Positions 4,745-55,219 are shown, counted from the stretch's first letter. The stretch is 60,302 nucleotides of DNA from Candidatus Moraniibacteriota bacterium (GCA_040772365.1 JAXGYI010000004.1:1-60302), one strand, 5' to 3'. The notes: generated by a model not told the origin, from the letters alone. Numbers and translations are program-made.

Positions 4745-6631
4745 TTACTTTTTTATTTTCTGTGTAATGACCTTTATTATAGCATGTGCATCAATCTTTT
4801 CATATGCGTACAATTCCTGTGCACTACCACTCCGTGGCATACGATCTACCGCACAGTGTACGATCGCATATGTACGCGGCACCACAGCACATGCTGCAAG
4901 CACCGCTTCACCCAAGCCGCCAGCACGATAGTGATCCTCCACAATTACTACAAGCGTGCTGCCTTTCATAGCTGCGTGGAGCGCCGTCACGTCCAATGGC
5001 GCAATCACCGCAACATCTACCACACGTGCAGCAATGCCCTCACGTGCCAGCGCCGCCGCTGCATCACATGCCTGTGCCACCGTCGTGCCTGTCGCAATAA
5101 TCGTTGCCTGCGGGCGCGCCGCATCACACACTACTGCACACGCATCAACGTGTGTTTCCGTTGTATGTGATAAGAGCGGTGTTTTTTCTCGTGCCGTACG
5201 AATATAGGTGATACCTTTTGTGCGATGTGCTTTTTTCACACACGCCACCGTTGCACGTGCATCTGCCGGTGATAGGACCGTTGCGCCATACACACTACGC
5301 ATCATTGCCACATCTTCCAATCCCATTTGTGATACGCCGTCCGCACCAGTCGCTACACCGGCATGTGATCCCACAATCGTCATGCGCACATCACTATATG
5401 CCGCCATACGTATTTGATCATGTGCACGCGTGAGAAATGCCGCAAAAGAAGAAATGAACGGGTGGTAGCCACAGCGTGCCAATCCTACCGCCACACCAAC
5501 CATATTCTGCTCTGCAATATACATTTCAAAAAAGCGCTCCGGAGCATAGAGCTGCGCAACTTCCGCCATTGTGGAATTACTCACCTCAGCGTCCAACACG
5601 ACAACGGTCGGATCATCCCGCATAATACGTACAAGTGCTGCACCATAGCTATCACGCGTCGCATAGTGCGCATACGGATCGTGCATCCATTTCTGCGTAG
5701 CACTAGACTGATCAGTGCTTTTACGTGTCCGACGCTCTTCCATCATGTTCTGTGGCACAGCAATTGTGCCACGCACATCAAAATCTACATACCCCAACTC
5801 TCCGACTGCCTGCAGAAATTCATCGTGCGATAACGTCTTACCATGCCACCCGTATTTATCTTCTAAGAAAGAAATGCCCTTGCCCTTATACGTCTGTGCA
5901 ATAATCATAAGCGGTGCATCTGCATCGTCATGTACCATATGTGTCAGTACACGTGAAATTTCTTCAATGTTGTGCCCATGAATAATGACCGTACGCCATC
6001 CACATGCACGCGCACGACGAGCGTACGCTTCCATGTGGTGCCCATCCATCGTTACGCCACGCTGCCCCAGTCGATTCACATCAACAATAGCCGTGAGGTT
6101 GCCTACCTCATAGTGAGCAGCAATCTGCATCGCCTCCCACACCTGCCCCTCTGCCATCTCGCTGTCACCGAGAAGAACGAAAGTGCGTGCCGTTGTTTTA
6201 TCTAATTTCTTCTGTGCAAGTGCCATGCCCAAACCCACAGAAAGACCCTGCCCCAATGACCCTGTCGCCGCCTCAGTAAAAGGGAAGGTCATTGTTGGAT
6301 GCCCCTCTAGAGCACTGTCAAACTGTCGATATGTGGATAGATCCTCAACACGAATCGCCCCCGCTGCTGCCCACAGTGCATAGAAGAGCGGTGTAGCATG
6401 TCCCTTGGAAAAAATCACGCGATCGTTATGTTTTTCACGTGGATGTTGCACATCATAGCGTAGTATTCCACCAAAAAAGAGCACTGTCATTATTTCCACT
6501 GCCGATAGTGATGATGTCGGATGCCCAGATCCCGCCGTCGTTGTAGTGTCAAGAATCCAATACCGTAACAATGTTGCGATACGTTCTAGGTGTTTTTTTG
6601 TATGCTGATCCATGGTGATGCTTATTACCAC
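4745..6631 (-). CDS. tkt: Transketolase
   Basis: GSGHPTSSLS, SKGHA, LEGHP, TGSLGQG, TPP motif GDSEMAEG...N, EMYIAEQN, THAG-like SHAG..GADGVSQ. Confidence 0.93.
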   Translation of the reverse strand: MVISITMDQHTKKHLERIATLLRYWILDTTTTAGSGHPTSSLSAVEIMTVLFFGGILRYDVQHPREKHNDRVIFSKGHATPLFYALWAAAGAIRVEDLSTYRQFDSALEGHPTMTFPFTEAATGSLGQGLSVGLGMALAQKKLDKTTARTFVLLGDSEMAEGQVWEAMQIAAHYEVGNLTAIVDVNRLGQRGVTMDGHHMEAYARRARACGWRTVIIHGHNIEEISRVLTHMVHDDADAPLMIIAQTYKGKGISFLEDKYGWHGKTLSHDEFLQAVGELGYVDFDVRGTIAVPQNMMEERRTRKSTDQSSATQKWMHDPYAHYATRDSYGAALVRIMRDDPTVVVLDAEVSNSTMAEVAQLYAPERFFEMYIAEQNMVGVAVGLARCGYHPFISSFAAFLTRAHDQIRMAAYSDVRMTIVGSHAGVATGADGVSQMGLEDVAMMRSVYGATVLSPADARATVACVKKAHRTKGITYIRTAREKTPLLSHTTETHVDACAVVCDAARPQATIIATGTTVAQACDAAAALAREGIAARVVDVAVIAPLDVTALHAAMKGSTLVVIVEDHYRAGGLGEAVLAACAVVPRTYAIVHCAVDRMPRSGSAQELYAYEKIDAHAIIKVITQKIKK

Positions 6632-7293
6632 TATAATTGCTTCTGTGCAAAAGCACGTAGCTGCTTATATGCCGTCACCGGATTTGCCGCGCGTGTAATT
6701 GCACTGCCCACGGCAATGCGATCTGCACCACTCGCCATCACGCGCGCAAGTGTCTCCTGTGTCACTCCACCATCTACTGCTACACAGAGGTCTGTACGCA
6801 CAGCACGCACCGCTGCAATTTTATCCAACATATCCGGTAAAAATGTACCTCCCTGCCGCCCCGGCACCACCGTCATGATCTGCACATCATCCACATGATC
6901 CAGATACGGTATAGCGTCATCCACACGTGTCTGCGGGGATAGCGAAAGTCCAAGTGTAAATGTATACGATGTCGCCGCATGAATAACGTATGACGGACTT
7001 TCCACTTCATTGACATGAAAATACACACGCTCCGCGCCCAGCGCCTCACAAGCATCAAAGTATTCCTCTGGATGCGTCGTCATCAGGTGCACCTCAATCT
7101 CCATCGCACCACACACACCAACAAGATCGTAGAGATCACACGTTGCCTGATCGGTCATGGTGCCGTCAGAAAAATCAATCTGCACTGCATCTGCTACTGT
7201 GCGCAGTTGTGCACAGAGCTGCACTACTGCGTCACAATCCTCCTCTAAAAGCGCTGGAAGAATTTTTACCATAGTAAAAAATACAATAGACAC
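6631..7293 (-). CDS. rpe: Ribulose-phosphate 3-epimerase
   Basis: EVHLM, YFHV, QIMTVVPGRQGGTF, VDGGV motifs; stop overlaps the tkt start. Confidence 0.88.
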   Translation of the reverse strand: MSIVFFTMVKILPALLEEDCDAVVQLCAQLRTVADAVQIDFSDGTMTDQATCDLYDLVGVCGAMEIEVHLMTTHPEEYFDACEALGAERVYFHVNEVESPSYVIHAATSYTFTLGLSLSPQTRVDDAIPYLDHVDDVQIMTVVPGRQGGTFLPDMLDKIAAVRAVRTDLCVAVDGGVTQETLARVMASGADRIAVGSAITRAANPVTAYKQLRAFAQKQL

Positions 7294-47184: not shown

Positions 47185-48503
47185 TTATTGTGCACTGTAG
47201 TACTCTCCAATAACCTCACACCAACTCTGCGCCATTGCAATCGTTTCGCCATCCACAACAATCTTGTTTAGCGTTTCACCATTGCCGTACACAGCCTCAG
47301 CTCCAACATAATCACGATCCCACAGCCTCAGCGTCTCTGATTTATCAGTAAGCGCCACAGTGTCTCCGGAAGTAAGGTGTTTTTTATAGTAGCGCCATTT
47401 CTGCGCGTGACCACAGCGATCTTCTTTATCCCACGGCTTTGCTGCACGATAGAGCACTTCGCTACCATCTGGAGAAAAAGCAAGTACGAAAATACTTTCA
47501 CTCTTTCCATCAATCACGCCACGCACGTCACCTGAGACCGGATCAACAACATTGTACGCACTAGGCGATGTACCAGAGAGATGATTACAGATGTCCGTGA
47601 TCGTATTTTTCACAATCGCCATCATCATGCCATTATCACTCATCGGACCGGCAGACGCATTCACTGGTGTTTTTTTCATATGGCCACTTTTGACATCCAT
47701 AGACCATAACCCGGAAGTTTCGCCCATTAACTCAGCCACGATAACTTTTCCATCGCTTCTCCATGATAAAAGGTGAAACATACTTGTGTCATGGCTTTTT
47801 CTAATAACATGTCCCGTTTTTGTCGCCAAGTCAAAAATATGCACATAGGATCTCTGATCATCCTCTTCAGGAACGTTTTTTTGATCCCAGATCATCAGTT
47901 GAGCACCATCCGGAGAAAAGATAACGTTACGCACCTCTTTTTTTGGGATAAATATATCCGTAAGCTTTTTTGTTGCTATATCAAGCATCTGTAGCTTACT
48001 CTCAAGATTAATTAGGAGGAAGCGAGATCCGGACTCATGAGAAAGCCCGAGGGATACTCTCCTATCTTTCCGACATCCGCCAACATCTCCGGATTTCCGG
48101 ATCCCACTTTTCTAAAAATTCTCACTGTAGGCCATGCACGATGGCGTTTAGTTTCTTCAGATATCTGCTCAAAATATAGAATCACTGGAACCTTTTCTGC
48201 GACAGCATCGTGCTGCTGCACTGCATCATCATGACTTGTGCCGTGCTGCTCTACTATGACGTCTTGTGTAGCGTAATCTACAGCCTGGTCTACATCCTGC
48301 TCTACAGCAACATCACCGCCACGGTTATCATCACTACTCGTATCATTGTCTTGCATGTGAGAAAAGTAGTAATACATTCCCCCAAATAACCCACCAAAAA
48401 TCACAACGACCCCCGCAGCGATCCACAGAAAAATTTTCCACTTCTTCTTTTTACTGTACACATCATCATCAACAACTACTTGCGCATGTACACCTTTACG
48501 CAT
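47185..48503 (-). pseudogene. Membrane-anchored WD40/TolB-like beta-propeller gene split by a 1-nt frameshift (ORFs 48012-48503 and 47185-47988)
   Basis: Minus strand AGT CCG GAT CT CGC TTC CTC CTA ATT AAT...: adding one base at ~48025 gives SPDxRFLLINLESKLQMLDIATKK, joining both ORFs; FSPDG repeats downstream. Confidence 0.7.
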
Positions 48504-48743
48504 ATCCCCGTTATTACAGTTTAGAAGCTATTGTTAGTATAGCACACCACATCTACCACATCACCCCCCGTGTCACAATGTGCGCAACATCACGAAATAA
48601 AAAATACTACCTGTGGTAGCATCCTTACTTATGTTGATTTTATGATTTTTCCTCCTCCGTGGAAGAATAAAAGAACAATGTCACCCAACATGCATATGCC
48701 ATAGCACATTTTCACATCCTGTACAATCACACCACAGCTCACA

Positions 48744-49559
48744 TTACCACCCAAAAACTTTTTTAGCGTTTTTCATCGTAGCGTGTGCTACGTCTTCCAC
48801 GGATATACCGCGCACGTCCGCAATTTTGCAGGCAACCAGCACCACATCTTTCGGTTCGCAGCGACTGTCGCGCGGCAAAGGGCGCGGCGGTAAATACGGA
48901 CAATCCGTTTCTATAAGAAGCATCTCTAACGGTACCGTACGTATGAGTTTGTCATAGGAATCCCCATACGTCACAATTCCATTTAATCCGATCATGTAGC
49001 CCTCATCCACAAACTTCTGTGCTGTTTTCCATCCGCCTACAAAACTATGAATCACGCCGCGCTGTGTCACAGGCTTTTGTTGTAAGATTTCCAATACGTC
49101 ATCATAGGCATCCCAACAGTGCACGACGATTGGCTTGCCTACTGCATTACACACATCAATGCACCCGCGAAACACCTCTTTTTGTTTCTCTTTGATCGCC
49201 GCAACATCATCCGTATCTCCAAAATGATGGTAGTCCAATCCCACTTCACCAATCGCCACTACTTTGGCATCATGCGCCAACGCCGTATAAAACGCCGCAT
49301 CAAACACTTCCACGACACGCTCCCCTGGCGCCGCCTGTGCCGTAGCTGCGGCATGCAACGGGTGCATCCCAACCGTTGCCCACACATCGTGGTACGCATG
49401 CGCCACATCCACAGCGCACTGCGACGTGTGGCGATTTGTTCCCACCGTTACCATTGCCACAAGTCCCGCATCGCGCGCCCGCTTCACCACATCCGCCCTA
49501 TCTGCATCAAATTGTGCGTCATGCACGTGTGCATGCACATCGCAATATACCATAGACAT
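48744..49559 (-). CDS. tatD: TatD-family nuclease/hydrolase
   Basis: DVHAH, GMHP, AIGEVGLDY, VHCWDA, VIHSF, IETDCPYL; ATG 49559 overlaps the upstream stop (TGATG). Confidence 0.93.
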   Translation of the reverse strand: MSMVYCDVHAHVHDAQFDADRADVVKRARDAGLVAMVTVGTNRHTSQCAVDVAHAYHDVWATVGMHPLHAAATAQAAPGERVVEVFDAAFYTALAHDAKVVAIGEVGLDYHHFGDTDDVAAIKEKQKEVFRGCIDVCNAVGKPIVVHCWDAYDDVLEILQQKPVTQRGVIHSFVGGWKTAQKFVDEGYMIGLNGIVTYGDSYDKLIRTVPLEMLLIETDCPYLPPRPLPRDSRCEPKDVVLVACKIADVRGISVEDVAHATMKNAKKVFGW

Positions 49560-49996
49560 CATCGTGTTTTTTTGGCACACTTTTCCCGCAATGTCATCAC
49601 AGCAAACATGCCGAGGCTGATGATGACGAAGAGGCTGCCCATCCATGTGGAAACTTCTTCTTTGGAGGTTGGTATCACTGAGGGAAATCCCGTAGAACGT
49701 ACGGATGCTTGTGAAATCCATAGAGCTGCCAATATCATCCATATAGTGGAAAAGATGATCCATCGTTTGAATGTTTTGGTAGAGATGAAGAAGGTGAAGA
49801 GGGATGTGAAAAGAATACTGAGAGACATAAGAAATAATGGTTCTGAAAATGATTTACGCCATCCTACAAAAATACATTCCTTACCAGATATACAGAGATG
49901 ATACACATAGGGATCAAATGTAATATATCCAATGACCGTACTGATTAGAGATAACACAACAATCAAGATTTTATACTTCATTTTTTTCAGATTCAT
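49559..49996 (-). CDS. Small multi-TM membrane protein, paralog 2
   Basis: 145 aa, ~4 hydrophobic segments; C-terminal two-thirds nearly identical to 50053-50499. Confidence 0.8.
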   Translation of the reverse strand: MNLKKMKYKILIVVLSLISTVIGYITFDPYVYHLCISGKECIFVGWRKSFSEPLFLMSLSILFTSLFTFFISTKTFKRWIIFSTIWMILAALWISQASVRSTGFPSVIPTSKEEVSTWMGSLFVIISLGMFAVMTLREKCAKKTR

Positions 49997-50576
49997 AATG
50001 GTGAAACACTAGTTATTTAAAAAGAAACTCAACATCGATCTTCTTTGCCGCCCTATCGGCTTTTATGTTGGGGTTTTGTATATTTCTCTCGCAATGTCAT
50101 CACGGCAAACATGCCGAGGCTGATGATGACAAAGAGACTGCCCATCCAGATGGAGATCTCTCCCTTTGAAGCGGGTAAAATTGTGGGAAAGCCAACGGGG
50201 CGTACGGATGCTTGTGAAATCCATAGAGCTGCCAATATCATCCATATAGTGGAAAAGATGATCCACTGTTTGAATGTTTTGGTAGAGATGAAGAAGGTGA
50301 AGAGGGATGTGAAAAGAATAGCACTGATTAAAAACATCATTGGCTTAATAACAGTTAATTGATATTGCAACAACCAGCATTGCTTTGTGTATTGTAATAC
50401 TTGAAACCTTTCGTATGGACACAGAAACGTATTATACAGAACATACAGCGTTAAAATTACTACACTCCACACTATGATAGTCATTTTTACTATTTTCATA
50501 TTTTTTATTTAATAAAAAAATGCAACATCGATCTTCTTTGCCGCTTTGTCGGCTTTTGTGCTGGGGTTTTGCACAG
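49595..50576. repeat. ~500-bp tandem duplication (lipase 3' tail plus membrane gene)
   Basis: 49698-49817 matches 50201-50320 at 118/120 nt (period 503); CAACATCGATCTTCTTTGCCGC occurs at 50030 and 50523. Confidence 0.9.
50053..50499 (-). CDS. Small multi-TM membrane protein, paralog 1
   Basis: 148 aa, starts 9 bp after the lipase stop. Confidence 0.8.
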   Translation of the reverse strand: MKIVKMTIIVWSVVILTLYVLYNTFLCPYERFQVLQYTKQCWLLQYQLTVIKPMMFLISAILFTSLFTFFISTKTFKQWIIFSTIWMILAALWISQASVRPVGFPTILPASKGEISIWMGSLFVIISLGMFAVMTLREKYTKPQHKSR

Positions 50577-53500
50577 TGATGGAGCGCAGAGGATTGGTTT
50601 TGATGGCACGTAGATCCGTGACACAAAATGTGGCAGTGGTTTTTTTGCTGTTGTAGTGCGTGACATTCTTTGCCTTTGTCCCACCAATCCGCACAATCGC
50701 ATCCTTGTCAAAGTGCTTACCAAAAAGCGTCACGTCAATCTTCTCCGGACATTTTGTACTTGAGGTCATGCGCCGCGATGCCGTCCACCGATCAATGGAT
50801 GCTTTTGTGGGTGCTTTCTTTTGCTTTTTCTGCTGTTGCTGGGTCGGCTGCGCATCTGCCGCGTCTTCTTCCACGATCTGCGGCACATCCTCCGTCCCCG
50901 TAAGGCGAGCTACGCCATTGAGTCGCGGCGCAAGTGTATAGTCATCGGTGCCGTCGCCGTCATAATCCGCCGTAAGCGATGTCATGTCAGAAAGGTCACC
51001 ATGTGGCACAGAGAAGCGCACAGTTGTCAGATCGGATGTGGGTAGATCGGCAAAAGTAGCATGTCCCACAGTTTTTTCCCCCGTACCAGTCACTGCAATC
51101 TCTTGTAATTCTACCGTGTACACACCCGCACCGTAACCATCCAATTCTACACGCACATCACTGTCTGCACCCCACCCAACATAGGTACGCCCATCAAAGA
51201 CATCATAGTAACTGTTGGGAATGGCGGTTTCAATGACTTTGTTTTTTTTACCATCTTGCATGATAGTGGTGGGTCCGGTGTGGTTGCCGTCTTGATCATA
51301 GAGATGTACATGAAGCGGTGAGTAGAGTGCCATGCGGATGCGCTGAGGATTTTTCATTTTATCCGATTCCGATGGGCGTTTGTCTGAAATATATTGTGGC
51401 AAGTCTTGTGGCGGATAGCGGTTGACAATAATTTCCTTAATAAAATTCCTAACCTGCCTTACCTCTAAAATATCTGAATGTTTATTTTGTTTAGTTACAG
51501 AAGTATCTTGATTAAACAAATCCACCCAATACCTCTTCACATTCCGTGCACCCTTCATCATCAGCGCACTTGGGGTCACTACCACATCATCGCCATCAAC
51601 CGTATACCGCGGCTCATAGAACGGTTGATTTTCCCGTGCGCAATCCACGCCCTCAATATCAAAAGTGTCCACTGTTTTTTGACAATCTTTATGATTACCC
51701 TCTCGATAGTGTACGCCCTGAATTGTATCCAATCCCCACCCAGCAATTTGGATCACAGCAATATCACCCGACGGCATCCAAGCATCAATAGCCCTGTGTA
51801 AAATATCCGCCCGCTTCAGCAAGTTCTTATTGATCACATTCTCTGCATGCACTGCATCGCGATCTGGCTTTACACGATGGTCCCTTTCCCCTGTCATGAA
51901 TTGCACAAAAGTATCATAATCATCAATACGTGATCCATAGGCATCTGCATATTTTTTGTACGGCTCTGCATTTGTACGAAAGCGGATCACAGCATCCTGC
52001 GCGCGTTGAAAATACTCCGCCGACGGCAATAGCCCATATGCACCTGGCATCGTATTAATAAGCACTCGCGCCTTTGCACCGTCCATCAGCCATGGAATAC
52101 TAAGCTTCTCATCATAGCCGTAGAGAAACGATAGGATAGACTTCGGTGTACCCATTTGTGGAGACCCTACCAAGACAACATTGTCTACTAGGTGACCTTT
52201 GCCCTGTATTTCCAGCTCACGTACAAGCGCCTTTGCTAAAAGCCCTCCATTGGAATGTCCTATAACCGTCACTTTGCCGCTATGAGATGTCGCCGCCAAT
52301 CTCTCAGTCTCCACAACCAGTTTTTTCCGCTCCCCATCAGGGTACCTCGTGCCGTTAAAAAGAATATCATTGAGACCATAGCGCCAGTCATAGGCATAGA
52401 GGAGATAATCGGTAATACTATTGTGTTCCTTCATCTTTTTGATATCACCGATCAATGATTTATAGATATTACTACCAATGATTGGTATGCCGATCTCATC
52501 AATAACATCTTTTGTATAGATCCCATCGTCCATCTGCGGTGTACCGTCTTTGCGGAATTGCAGCCAATCCGTTTCAAAGCGATTACTTGGCTCCCACACT
52601 TTGACACTTTTCCCTTCTGCATTATCTCCGTAGAGACGGCTCGCCTTAATGCCAGGAAGAAAAAGTACATTGGAGCCCCGCTGCGTATTGGGACCAGATC
52701 TCCATCCATCAAGAATGACGTCACCCAAAACAAACTCCCCAGTATTGCGCCACTCCCCGTGTATGCGCTCCGGCCCATCTGCGTGTCCATACCAATTATT
52801 CACAAGCTGTACGCGGTTAGAGCTCAAAAGCTCCGCATCACCTGAGACCTCTCCCCAGCAAAAGCTTCTGCATCGCAGAAAATCTGCGTTGTCGGCTATT
52901 TGTATTTTGTCTGTATCCATACCCGTGCAGTTTTTCATGCACTGGGGGATAACGTGTGTGAGACTGTCTTTGCCCTCCACGCGAGATACGATCGCAATGT
53001 GGTTTGCTGTATTATAAAAATCCGTATTCGCAATGCGTAGAGACGATGCATTATTGTGCGTGTATAAGCGAACCTCAATATTTGCAAAAATCCCATTGCG
53101 AAAAACGGATCGATCAATGGCTACATGACCCCTGTGTAGCAAAAAACTTCCTTTATAGGTGAGGTCACGATATTCGTTGATTGGCAGCGGCGACAGTGGT
53201 GACGTCATGCCCTCAAGACGTTTCATGTTGTGACTATAGGGAGCAGCAATACACAGACGAAGATGTGTAACAGAATCACGGGCACCATCAAAAATAACAT
53301 GTGAAAATGTTGATGCTGGTGCACCAGCCGCGGTATCAAAATATATACTACCCCTATAGTACATACAATCGGATCCTGGAGAAAGAACGTGGGGACTGTA
53401 TACGATCGTAATCGGTTGTTCTACTGTGCCCTGTGCCACAATATGCGCTTTGTCATAAATCATCACTGAGGATATGGTAATGTGCGCGCCCGGTGTAATC

Positions 53501-53679
53501 ATCACTGTTGCATGATCGCGAATCTCAACCCAATCATAGTGACTAAGGTCCATCGTGCCGCTCCATGTTGTGTCTCGATCAATAACAAAAAACTCCCTTG
53601 CGTGTGTGGAAGTGGGAGTGAATAAAAAAAGCGCTATACCCACCACGATAATACCGCTCTTTGCAAAAAAAGATTTCAT
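50509..53679 (-). CDS. Secreted multidomain alpha/beta-hydrolase (LCAT/PGAP1-like lipase/phospholipase), 1056 aa
   Basis: Signal peptide; beta-helix-like N-terminus; FLPGIKASRL, YDWRY, GHSNGG (Ser), GSPQMGTPKS, VDGDDVV (Asp), KHSDIL (His); IPT/TIG-like C-terminus. Confidence 0.8.
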   Translation of the reverse strand: MKSFFAKSGIIVVGIALFLFTPTSTHAREFFVIDRDTTWSGTMDLSHYDWVEIRDHATVMITPGAHITISSVMIYDKAHIVAQGTVEQPITIVYSPHVLSPGSDCMYYRGSIYFDTAAGAPASTFSHVIFDGARDSVTHLRLCIAAPYSHNMKRLEGMTSPLSPLPINEYRDLTYKGSFLLHRGHVAIDRSVFRNGIFANIEVRLYTHNNASSLRIANTDFYNTANHIAIVSRVEGKDSLTHVIPQCMKNCTGMDTDKIQIADNADFLRCRSFCWGEVSGDAELLSSNRVQLVNNWYGHADGPERIHGEWRNTGEFVLGDVILDGWRSGPNTQRGSNVLFLPGIKASRLYGDNAEGKSVKVWEPSNRFETDWLQFRKDGTPQMDDGIYTKDVIDEIGIPIIGSNIYKSLIGDIKKMKEHNSITDYLLYAYDWRYGLNDILFNGTRYPDGERKKLVVETERLAATSHSGKVTVIGHSNGGLLAKALVRELEIQGKGHLVDNVVLVGSPQMGTPKSILSFLYGYDEKLSIPWLMDGAKARVLINTMPGAYGLLPSAEYFQRAQDAVIRFRTNAEPYKKYADAYGSRIDDYDTFVQFMTGERDHRVKPDRDAVHAENVINKNLLKRADILHRAIDAWMPSGDIAVIQIAGWGLDTIQGVHYREGNHKDCQKTVDTFDIEGVDCARENQPFYEPRYTVDGDDVVVTPSALMMKGARNVKRYWVDLFNQDTSVTKQNKHSDILEVRQVRNFIKEIIVNRYPPQDLPQYISDKRPSESDKMKNPQRIRMALYSPLHVHLYDQDGNHTGPTTIMQDGKKNKVIETAIPNSYYDVFDGRTYVGWGADSDVRVELDGYGAGVYTVELQEIAVTGTGEKTVGHATFADLPTSDLTTVRFSVPHGDLSDMTSLTADYDGDGTDDYTLAPRLNGVARLTGTEDVPQIVEEDAADAQPTQQQQKKQKKAPTKASIDRWTASRRMTSSTKCPEKIDVTLFGKHFDKDAIVRIGGTKAKNVTHYNSKKTTATFCVTDLRAIKTNPLRSITVQNPSTKADKAAKKIDVAFFY

Positions 53680-53785
53680 AATAAATAATGAATGATGCCT
53701 ACATCAGTAGTTATTGCAGATGCACAAAGCCTGATCACAGTATAACACATGTGCCGCTGATTAAAACTACGCACAGCCCCTCTCT

Positions 53786-55219
53786 CTACGCAACACGCTG
53801 AAACAAGATCACGCGCTCACGTGTAGCAATTGCATGGAGAATCTTCTGCGAGGTGTCCGGCAAGAATGGCGCCAATGCAATACCCAGTGCATGCAACTCT
53901 TGCAGTAGTTCACTAATGATGTTTTCAAACGCCTGCTGGTCACTTTTGCGCAATTCCCACGGCTTAGTATCTTCAATACGCTTATTTGCGGCACGCACGC
54001 GCGCCCACAAGATCTCCAACGCACCCTGCATTTCCATACGCTCCACCGCATCACCAACACCACCATCATCCACATGCTCCTGCGGCGTAAATGCCATATC
54101 TCCCGCCAACGCAATAATACGCGATGTGAGGTTGCCCAATCCATTGGCGAGATCAGCATTGTACGTAGCGTCCATCTTGTCCCATGAAATATCGGAATCC
54201 TCCCCAAAAGCGCCCTTGGTCAAAAGTATATACCGCGTCCCGTCCACGCCGTAGCGTGCCACCATTTCCGCCGGCGCGATGACATTGCCCAGCGACTTGC
54301 TCATCTTCTGTCCGTCCACACCGATAAATCCGTTGATGAAAATCTGTCGACTCGTCGGCAGTCCCGCCGCCAAAAGCATCGCCTGCCACATGGCGCTTTG
54401 TTGACGCACGTTATCTTTGCCGGCAATTTGTACGGCACGCGGCGCATCCGCCGTGCCCCAGAAACGCGCAAAATACGCATCGTCTTCCGGCCACCCCAAT
54501 GTGGACACATAATTTGTCAACGCATCAAACCACACATACATCACCTGCGTCTCGTCGCCCGGTACCGGCACGCCCCACGGCATTTTTTCCTTCAACCGTG
54601 AAATAGAAAAATCCTGCAATCCCTTTTCCACAAATGTGCGAATTTCATTGAGGCGCTTCTGGGGTACGACAAAATCGGGATAGGCATCATACAGCGCAAG
54701 CAATTGATCCCTGAACGCACTAAAACGAAAAAAGTAATTTTCCTCATCAATGGTCTCCAGTGGTTTACCGGGGTGAAATGGACACTCGCCGTGCACCAAC
54801 TCACTGTCGGTCTTTTCTAACTCGCACCCCACGCAATACTTCACACTGTATTTTTTCTTATAGATATAACCGCCCGCGTCCACGCGCCGCCACATCTCCT
54901 GCGCCGCCGCCTTGTGGTGGGAATTCGTGGTGCGGATAAAATGCGTATAAGAAAGATTGAGGAGCGTCTTCAGATCGTCGAACTTCGCTGCATAACCGTC
55001 CACATAGTCTTGCGCGCCCATATCCGCTTCCTGCGCCTTCTGCCAAATCTTGATGCCGTGTTCGTCCGTACCAGTATTAAACACTACATCCTTACCGCAC
55101 GCCGCTTCCATACGAGCACGCACATCAGCAAGCACAATTTCACTGGCAAAGCCAATGTGCGGCGCCGCATTGACATATGGTAGTGTCGTCGTGATATAGA
55201 ATGACTGCCTTGGTACCAT
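53786..55219 (-). CDS. metG: Methionine--tRNA ligase (short form)
   Basis: YITTTLPYVNAAPHIG, TGTDEHG, YVWFDALTNY, GKDNVR, QKMSKSLGN. Confidence 0.96.
   Translation of the reverse strand: MVPRQSFYITTTLPYVNAAPHIGFASEIVLADVRARMEAACGKDVVFNTGTDEHGIKIWQKAQEADMGAQDYVDGYAAKFDDLKTLLNLSYTHFIRTTNSHHKAAAQEMWRRVDAGGYIYKKKYSVKYCVGCELEKTDSELVHGECPFHPGKPLETIDEENYFFRFSAFRDQLLALYDAYPDFVVPQKRLNEIRTFVEKGLQDFSISRLKEKMPWGVPVPGDETQVMYVWFDALTNYVSTLGWPEDDAYFARFWGTADAPRAVQIAGKDNVRQQSAMWQAMLLAAGLPTSRQIFINGFIGVDGQKMSKSLGNVIAPAEMVARYGVDGTRYILLTKGAFGEDSDISWDKMDATYNADLANGLGNLTSRIIALAGDMAFTPQEHVDDGGVGDAVERMEMQGALEILWARVRAANKRIEDTKPWELRKSDQQAFENIISELLQELHALGIALAPFLPDTSQKILHAIATRERVILFQRVA

Follow-up and report, generated by a model that had tools for sequence, protein, structure and literature searches.

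Between the metG and tatD genes of a Candidatus Moraniibacteriota bacterium lies a cassette that raises two questions, namely what its large exported lipase acts upon and why this enzyme is followed by two small transmembrane (TM) proteins, TM1 and TM2, which are alike in one part and divergent in another. The stretch of DNA analysed here, referred to as the window, comprises 60,302 nt (GCA_040772365.1 JAXGYI010000004.1:1-60302); all coordinates are those of the whole stretch, and all genes of the locus are on the minus strand. An earlier interpretation made without database searches (the sequence-only reading) had proposed a candidate effector/immunity system resembling Tle/Tli-type arrays. 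Effector/immunity remains the leading reading and is partly supported by the sequence comparisons described below, and a docking or lipid-acceptor role of the membrane proteins would fit most of the same data.

The wider problem is how cells of Patescibacteria, or candidate phyla radiation (CPR) bacteria, obtain their membrane lipids and damage their hosts, for which the module offers a concrete, widespread and tractable candidate. Interbacterial antagonism is barely charted in this phylum, and the module provides a testable lead as to how CPR cells may attack or harvest foreign membranes without harming themselves. No published description of a lipase/4-TM module was found in full-text searches of the literature. 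Reported here as new are the hot spots seen between strains, the concerted evolution of the partner cores, the single-copy alleles and the prevalence within the order.

The lipase and its membrane partners

The lipase gene (50509-53679, minus strand) encodes, as the sequence-only reading had claimed, a 1056-aa exported protein with a Ser/Asp/His triad, the residues of which are invariant in an alignment of 28 homologs. The open reading frame (ORF), Pfam, the AlphaFold2 (AF2) model and Foldseek together identify it as an exported beta-helix/LCAT-LPLA2-like serine hydrolase. Residues 403-738 match the Pfam family LCAT (PF02450) with an E value of 9e-12 and 45.3 bits against a cut-off of 21, and judged by this match the protein is a member of the LCAT-like family. 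The invariant residues include GHS476NGG, which contains the GxSxG elbow (S476, 52252-52254), D695/D697 (D695, 51595-51597), H734 (51478-51480), the Cys pair C666/C680 (51682-51684 and 51640-51642) and W39; the order Ser-Asp-His is present, with either D695 or D697 as the presumed catalytic Asp. More than 1130 homologs were found, mostly in Moranbacteria/Parcubacteria.

The AF2 model, built with the 28-sequence alignment, has a predicted local distance difference test (pLDDT) score of 78. Its top match in a Foldseek search against the PDB is LPLA2 (4x97/4x90; E 5e-10, TM-score 0.66-0.69), and LCAT (4x96) is found at E 1.5e-8, followed at rank six by Tle4 of the Tle4-Tli4 complex (4r1d_A; E 5e-8, TM-score 0.45). 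Sequence identity to the LCAT/LPLA2 structures is 12-15%. Tle4 also stands out among PDB sequences as the single notable match to the lipase family profile, with an E value of 2e-4 and restricted to the nucleophile region. Sequence and model thus leave it well supported that the enzyme acts as an LCAT/LPLA2-type serine hydrolase outside the cytoplasm, the substrate of which we infer.

The predicted domains follow one another along the minus strand. The Sec-type signal peptide MKSFFAKSGIIVVGIALFLFTPTSTHA (residues 1-27, 53599-53679) was read from the sequence, with cleavage after THA judged by eye, and coincides with a model helix at residues 2-20. The public gene call starts the lipase at M43 (1014 aa), by which the signal peptide is lost (window 53553-53679); since the invariant W39 and a conserved DTTW motif lie upstream of M43, the 1056-aa reading is considered correct. 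A right-handed beta-helix domain, swappable and adhesin-like, spans residues ~30-330 (52690-53592), as indicated by the strand pattern of the model and by Beta_helix/NosD Pfam matches of homologs. It precedes the alpha/beta-hydrolase catalytic domain (residues ~335-755, 51415-52677), which is delimited by Pfam, the alignment, AF2 and Foldseek. Strain comparisons define a hypervariable patch at residues 722-779 (51343-51516), comprising the loop before the catalytic His, the presumably exposed face of the next helix and a linker. In the AF2 model, this is followed by a beta-sandwich domain (residues 779-925, 50905-51345) and, after a disordered Q/K-rich linker, by an Ig-like C-terminal domain (residues 961-1051, 50527-50799), in place of which homologs carry PG_binding_1. 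In the lipases of loci L017 and L022, the beta-helix domains are only 25% identical, in contrast to 88% for the catalytic domains, which indicates that the adhesin-like N-terminal domain is swapped as a module, independently of the patch.

The two partner genes were confirmed as ORFs for paralogous TM proteins, the first of which starts, as previously noted, 9 nt past the lipase stop. TM1 (50053-50499; 148 aa) is a 4-TM protein with a 'CPYE...C'-type loop, and TM2 (49559-49996; 145 aa), assigned as a 4-TM partner by comparison with TM1, carries a loop of the 'FDPYVYxxCxxxxxC' type and starts 56 nt past TM1. The AF2 model of TM1 (pLDDT 83) contains four helices (residues 2-26, 44-68, 73-96 and 112-141), and its N-terminus, 68-73 loop and C-terminus carry the positive charges. 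An N-in/C-in topology, with the Cys-pair loop (~27-43) and the 97-111 loop outside, appears the most consistent with this sequence. The two proteins are 56% identical overall, with only 21% identity in the N-terminal ~57 aa and 83% in the core, and nine of the 11 core differences fall in the second extracytoplasmic loop; the previously described pattern of similar TM cores with divergent N-terminal and second loops is therefore upheld. Because TM1 has no match in Pfam, NCBIfam, PADLOC or PHROGs and no structural relative in the PDB by fold, the partner cannot be assigned to any known family. The family itself has many members, as a profile searched against 1.84 billion representatives returned 1157 clusters (50% identity) at E <= 1e-3 and 320 at E <= 1e-10.

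The linkage between enzyme and partner is recurrent from whichever side it is approached. When one genome per species was scanned with the TM family as seed, 23 loci were returned, and a family lipase lies directly upstream on the same strand in all 22 that have upstream sequence; the remaining locus (L027) begins at a contig edge and overlaps the lipase-bearing locus L001 at 99.9% identity, which brings the count to 23/23. The lipase seed yielded 80 metagenome loci, ~72 of which extend at least 450 nt past the lipase stop. A TM gene recognized by the family hidden Markov model starts between -33 and +154 nt from that stop in ~65 of the 72, and six further loci have a divergent small multi-TM ORF at this position (~71/72 in total), with L064 alone having none. 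On inspection, the seemingly unpaired cases G083, G104, G040:C7, G030, G073, G101 and G150 turned out to be pairs that have divergent members, and the G147 lipase, which runs into the contig end, was left out of the pairing judgement. The module occurs beside metG/tatD, RadC/PEMT, YkuD/glycosyltransferase, PBP2 and uvrA/uvrC genes, and such widely differing contexts imply that the pair travels as a unit. It is close to certain that the lipase and its partner genes constitute one functional unit.

Partner copy number varies, as a check proposed with the sequence-only reading had envisaged. Arrays range from one to five copies, with mostly one, but also 2, 3 (L009, L011) or 5 (L010), and whole genomes carry up to 8 TM copies, some of them with internal stops. 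The genome of the window contains a second module between uvrA and uvrC (contig C8:47461-51519; locus L006 5330-9526), which consists of a lipase and two TM genes. This lipase is 48% identical to that of the window, and its two partners repeat, in order, the loop types of TM1 and TM2. Beta-helix/LCAT-like lipases of a sister subfamily (890-957 aa) have a different companion, an unrelated ~95-aa membrane protein that apparently has 3 TM segments; in loci L123-L127 (G130, G060, G080, G084 and G045) its gene is usually just upstream of the lipase, and downstream in L127. Locus L116 carries a ~95-aa protein of the sister type upstream (5140-5427) as well as a partner of the window's TM family downstream.

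Of 151 genomes surveyed within the order, 35 contain the TM family and ~37 the catalytic-domain lipase. The module is present in seven of the nine genomes of the genus and, among the 12 genomes from the family's other genera, in one at most; it is found in about 25% of the order's genomes, or about 40% when the sister subfamily is counted. Since it lies between metG and tatD only in the window's species and in G085, and elsewhere in other members of the genus, the lipase/TM module is accessory, with a shifting location.

Strain-level variation and evolution of the locus

The window retains traces of how its array arose. The final 63 nt of the lipase gene (50509-50571) have an orphan copy at 50016-50078, between TM1 and TM2, with 84% identity, and a 247-nt repeat covering the core (TM segments 2 to 4) at 49571-49817 is 87% identical to 50074-50320 in TM1. 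The position of the lipase remnant indicates that a ~500-nt unit, composed of the lipase 3' end and a TM gene, was tandemly duplicated; the last 8 codons of TM1 are this lipase copy read in another frame. A simple recent tandem duplication was nevertheless rejected as the origin of the paralogs, since their N-termini are 21% identical against 84% for the neutral remnant, the core has a dS of 0.44, and the second module and distant genomes contain the same loop types.

The contrast between core and N-terminus is not confined to the window array (C4; 83% and 21%, respectively). The C8 array shows 93% core and 36% N-terminal identity, the L011 array 79-89% and 9-28%, and the two TM cores of L012 are also near-identical in the alignment. 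The loop of the form 'FDPYVYxxCxxxxxC' is shared by C4-TM2, C8-TMb and L011-TM2, and the form 'CPYE..F....C.LL.Y' by C4-TM1 and L012-TM1. The proposed divergence of the loops was thus found in the comparisons, with the extracytoplasmic loops as the fast-changing parts. The cores have a dS of 0.44 (dN 0.07) in C4 and 0.04 in C8, at a dN/dS of about 0.15-0.16, and these values indicate that the helices are under purifying selection and were homogenised at different times. Gene conversion presumably keeps the helices alike, and unequal crossing over would change the copy number.

Close strains, represented by L007 and L008 (one strain), L114 and L115, show where the locus changes first. L007, L114 and L115 share 99-100% nucleotide identity with the window over 3.6-12 kb, including the genes for S6, SSB and S18, metG, tatD and most of the lipase. 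The identity of L007 falls to 36-87% at three places, namely in lipase codons 722-779, throughout TM1 and over the 5' third of TM2. As many as 33 of the 48 amino-acid differences between the window and L007 lipases fall within residues 722-779, where nucleotide identity is 60-87%. They affect the 12 residues before H734, positions i, i+4, i+7/8 and i+11 of the following helix, and the linker; this spacing is consistent with one, presumably exposed, helix face, and by sequence position the patch would sit around the catalytic His. TM1 of L007 resembles the single partner of the more distant L001 (core 85%), unlike TM1 of the window (61%). No donor of the window's lipase patch was found in its own genome or in the fetched loci. 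L114 and L115 have the window-type lipase patch and one hybrid TM gene, which is of the TM1 type in its 5' part and of the TM2 type at its 3' end and shows a ~503-nt deletion. Such a hybrid is what unequal crossing over between the 247-nt repeats would be expected to produce, or else it may reflect an assembly collapse. In L011, a run of N (~6530-6740; G085:C7) covers the strain-hypervariable lipase segment (residues ~717-790); strain heterogeneity may have left a scaffolding gap here, or the data provider may have masked the segment.

The generality of this pattern was assessed with 44 non-redundant lipase-partner pairs, which included nine informative close pairs whose catalytic domains are 89-99% identical outside the patch. 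The patch was only 43-81% identical in all nine, and in eight of them the N-terminal part of the partner was 29-40% identical, with cores mostly at 80-94%. In a partial Mantel test, distances in the patch were correlated with those in the TM N-terminus, given the catalytic domain, at r = 0.24 (permutation p about 0.004, a significance that relatedness among the pairs inflates), and the adjacent beta-sandwich used as a control gave r = -0.02. Taken together, these sequence data are best explained if the patch and the extracytoplasmic parts of the partner form a physical interface under diversifying selection. The paired hypervariable surfaces of the enzyme and of this undescribed partner family therefore predict where the two proteins touch.

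Possible roles of the partner

The window's genome (919 kb, 99.4% complete) provides the physiological background. Neither a ketoacyl synthase nor PlsY was found in it, and its sole PlsC-type acyltransferase (G000 contig C2:48823-49245) fits the re-acylation of scavenged lysolipids; on these grounds the cell cannot make fatty acids, must take its membrane lipids from outside and probably builds its membrane from foreign lipids or lysolipids. The reading favoured here, with a probability of about 45%, is that of a membrane-attacking or lipid-harvesting surface enzyme with a putative cognate, diversifying membrane protector. The enzyme would be a phospholipase A/transacylase displayed on the cell surface, where it would cut or strip the lipids of host or rival cells. 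As the producer's own membrane would be built from the same scavenged lipids, the producer itself would need protection. The 4-TM partner in the producer membrane may engage the enzyme near the active-site entrance through its extracytoplasmic loops and so stop it from attacking the producer, which would amount to an immunity-like role. Diversification of this lock-and-key interface, together with extra partner copies, could then confer strain-specific protection. An immunity-like partner is suggested by the partner arrays, the decaying copies, the patchy distribution and the unrelated partner in the sister lipase subfamily. Toxin subfamilies likewise pair with unrelated immunity proteins, and toxin/immunity interfaces hypervary together between near-identical strains. 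Should the partner be a protector, the module would represent a lipase/immunity system able to work without a specialised secretion apparatus.

Several known systems resemble the module in part. It shares with LCAT and LPLA2 (PLA2G15; PF02450) the Pfam match, the GHSNG elbow, the Ser-Asp-His order and the best fold matches, but here the core is one part of a bacterial surface protein of 1056 aa that also contains a beta-helix, a beta-sandwich and an Ig-like tail, and it is constantly paired with a 4-TM protein. The likeness to Tle/Tli pairs (Tle4-Tli4, PDB 4r1d) that had been noted from the sequence holds in so far as Tle4 is among the fold matches and the lipase gene has a small cognate gene behind it, frequently as multiple copies. 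Membership of the Tle/Tli group was rejected, because no type VI secretion system (T6SS) was found in the window's genome (neither a TssC/VipB sheath nor Hcp, as the sequence-only reading had anticipated from the window) and because the partner is of another type, a polytopic membrane protein rather than a periplasmic protein or lipoprotein; the Sec signal peptide and the metG/tatD neighbours also set the module apart.

Small polytopic membrane partners are likewise found with the toxin TspA, which has an array of polytopic TsaI proteins, and with pore-forming colicins, whose immunity proteins have 3-4 TM segments; these immunity proteins act in the producer membrane. TslA, a Gram-positive type VII secretion system (T7SS) lipase with TilA lipoproteins, resembles the module in that a secreted, membrane-targeting protein is followed by tandem genes of variable number, and a lipase toxin with tandem immunity genes has been described in staphylococci (PMC10730906). 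Neither the T7SS toxins nor the colicins are related to the module by sequence or fold: the enzyme is an alpha/beta-hydrolase instead of a pore former and has no T7SS targeting domain. Polymorphic toxins (Zhang et al. 2012, PMC3482391) share with the module a conserved scaffold, part of which is rapidly replaced, a downstream cognate gene, a toxin 3'-end remnant between partner genes, strain variation driven by recombination and a patchy distribution. They differ in that it is the C-terminal toxin domain that is replaced, and not an internal patch of the catalytic domain; the remnant here is only 63 nt long, and no orphan partners were found. Features that generally mark toxin/immunity systems are nevertheless observed, namely an adjacent, co-oriented cognate gene across contexts and rapid co-diversification between close strains, with one exception (L070/L081). 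By analogy, the module may work like a lipase effector/immunity pair, without homology to the TsaI, colicin or TslA systems.

A number of observations weigh against a protector. The exposed loops of the partner are short (about 20-30 and 15 residues), whereas known immunity proteins against lipases (Tli, TilA) rely on soluble domains of considerable size. The core motifs of the partner (FTFFISDKIFKKW, PTKExVSIWMGSLFVIISL) are better conserved than the enzyme, which is not usual among immunity proteins and suggests a conserved role involving the membrane or lipids. Toxin systems commonly include orphan immunity genes, yet no TM gene without a lipase was found among the TM-seeded loci and the whole genomes inspected. 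In L070/L081 the patch has changed and the TM protein is identical, and the inflation of the Mantel significance by relatedness tells in the same direction, as does the possibility that collapse of the repeat during assembly produced the single-copy alleles of L114 and L115.

Part of this evidence would agree better with a lipid-acquisition machine, the main rival reading though a less probable one, in which the enzyme strips acyl chains or lysolipids from the host, the partner serves as docking site and as acceptor or entry point, and the variable interface ensures only cognate docking. LCAT and LPLA2, the best fold matches, are transacylases; the helices and the cytoplasmic loop of the partner are very conserved, and the pairing is obligate, without orphan partners. 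A genome without fatty-acid synthesis and PlsY but with a PlsC-like lysolipid acyltransferase would suit such a machine, the more so as no mechanism of lipid uptake or breakdown has been identified in Patescibacteria, for which lysolipids are the suspected source (2024 perspective, PMC11665869). However, a module present in only about a quarter of the order, even if the sister subfamily raises this share, and absent from sister genera would not be a general lipid route, and an essential, universal role in lipid uptake is ruled out by the patchy distribution. Simple docking would not account for strain hypervariability, arrays of up to five copies and decaying copies, and a lipid conduit of 135 aa and four helices would be small. 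If the partner does act as an acceptor, it would represent the first piece of a lipid-harvesting route. Both roles could also be joined in a strain-specific lock and key, in which an LCAT-type transacylase strips host or rival lipids, the partner both shields the producer and receives the product, and the variable surfaces privatise the enzyme; this we regard as rather unlikely, and if true it would make the module a bacteriocin-like competition and lipid-harvest system without a dedicated secretion machine.

That the partner is neither protector nor acceptor but a helper in maturation, anchoring or activation is less probable still. The tight coupling of an enzyme gene to that of a small membrane protein recalls lipase/foldase operons such as lipA-lif of Pseudomonas/Burkholderia, where the lipase gene is directly followed by that of a membrane-anchored partner, and the partner is constant where the C-terminal domain of the enzyme varies (Ig-like or PG-binding). 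Moreover, a preprint (bioRxiv 10.1101/2023.03.28.534661) reports that a Tli immunity protein activates its Tle lipase. Lif, however, consists of one anchor helix and a ~300-aa helical periplasmic domain, as opposed to the four helices and loops of 30 residues or fewer found here, and a Lif-type foldase was ruled out by this architecture, with neither homology nor a Pfam match. The partner thus has no sizeable extracytoplasmic domain for foldase action, and the only foldase-related fold match is weak (E 0.02, TMt 0.33) and belongs to the enzyme model, not the partner; the matching chain, 2es4_B of the B. glumae foldase-lipase entry, may itself be the lipase. Amplification to five copies and hypervariability between strains are likewise not what is normally seen in helpers. 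It is more improbable again that the shared hypervariability reflects outside pressure, such as phage receptors or host-made inhibitors, on two exposed molecules that do not interact. Both variable regions are presumably extracellular, and the change of patch without a change of TM protein in L070/L081 would be expected under such pressure. It would not explain the near-obligate adjacency and coupling over more than 90 loci, nor why the His-flanking patch should vary rather than the outermost beta-helix, and the partial correlation between the patch and the TM N-terminus, weak evidence in itself, points to coupling.

Flanking genes and promoter region

The metG gene (53786-55219, minus strand; ORF and profile matches) lies upstream of the lipase gene, from which it is separated by 106 nt. 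In this gap, the sequence-only reading had placed a promoter of the cassette, and the string TGTTATACT, which resembles an extended -10 element, is indeed present at 53739-53747 on the minus strand. It remains a possible, unproven cassette promoter, since a consensus promoter scan did not pick it up at 53747-53739(-), where no -35 element was found, and the number of promoters scored across the region was no higher than in shuffled sequences.

On the other side of the cassette lies tatD (48744-49562, minus strand), which was identified by profile matches and whose start corresponds to M68 of a longer ORF. Its ATG (49562) shares 4 nt (ATGA) with the stop of TM2, and from this overlap tatD is judged to be translationally coupled to TM2. 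The claim that metG and tatD are commonly adjacent holds within the family, the two genes being located on the same strand 0.4-0.8 kb apart in the relatives G057, G113 and G141. Another strain-variable spot is found just downstream of tatD (48300-48620), around the start of a 163-aa membrane-anchored ORF (48012-48503). Near 48300, L114 is 85% identical to the window, with a 12-nt indel, and L007 diverges from the window from 48616 to the end of its contig.

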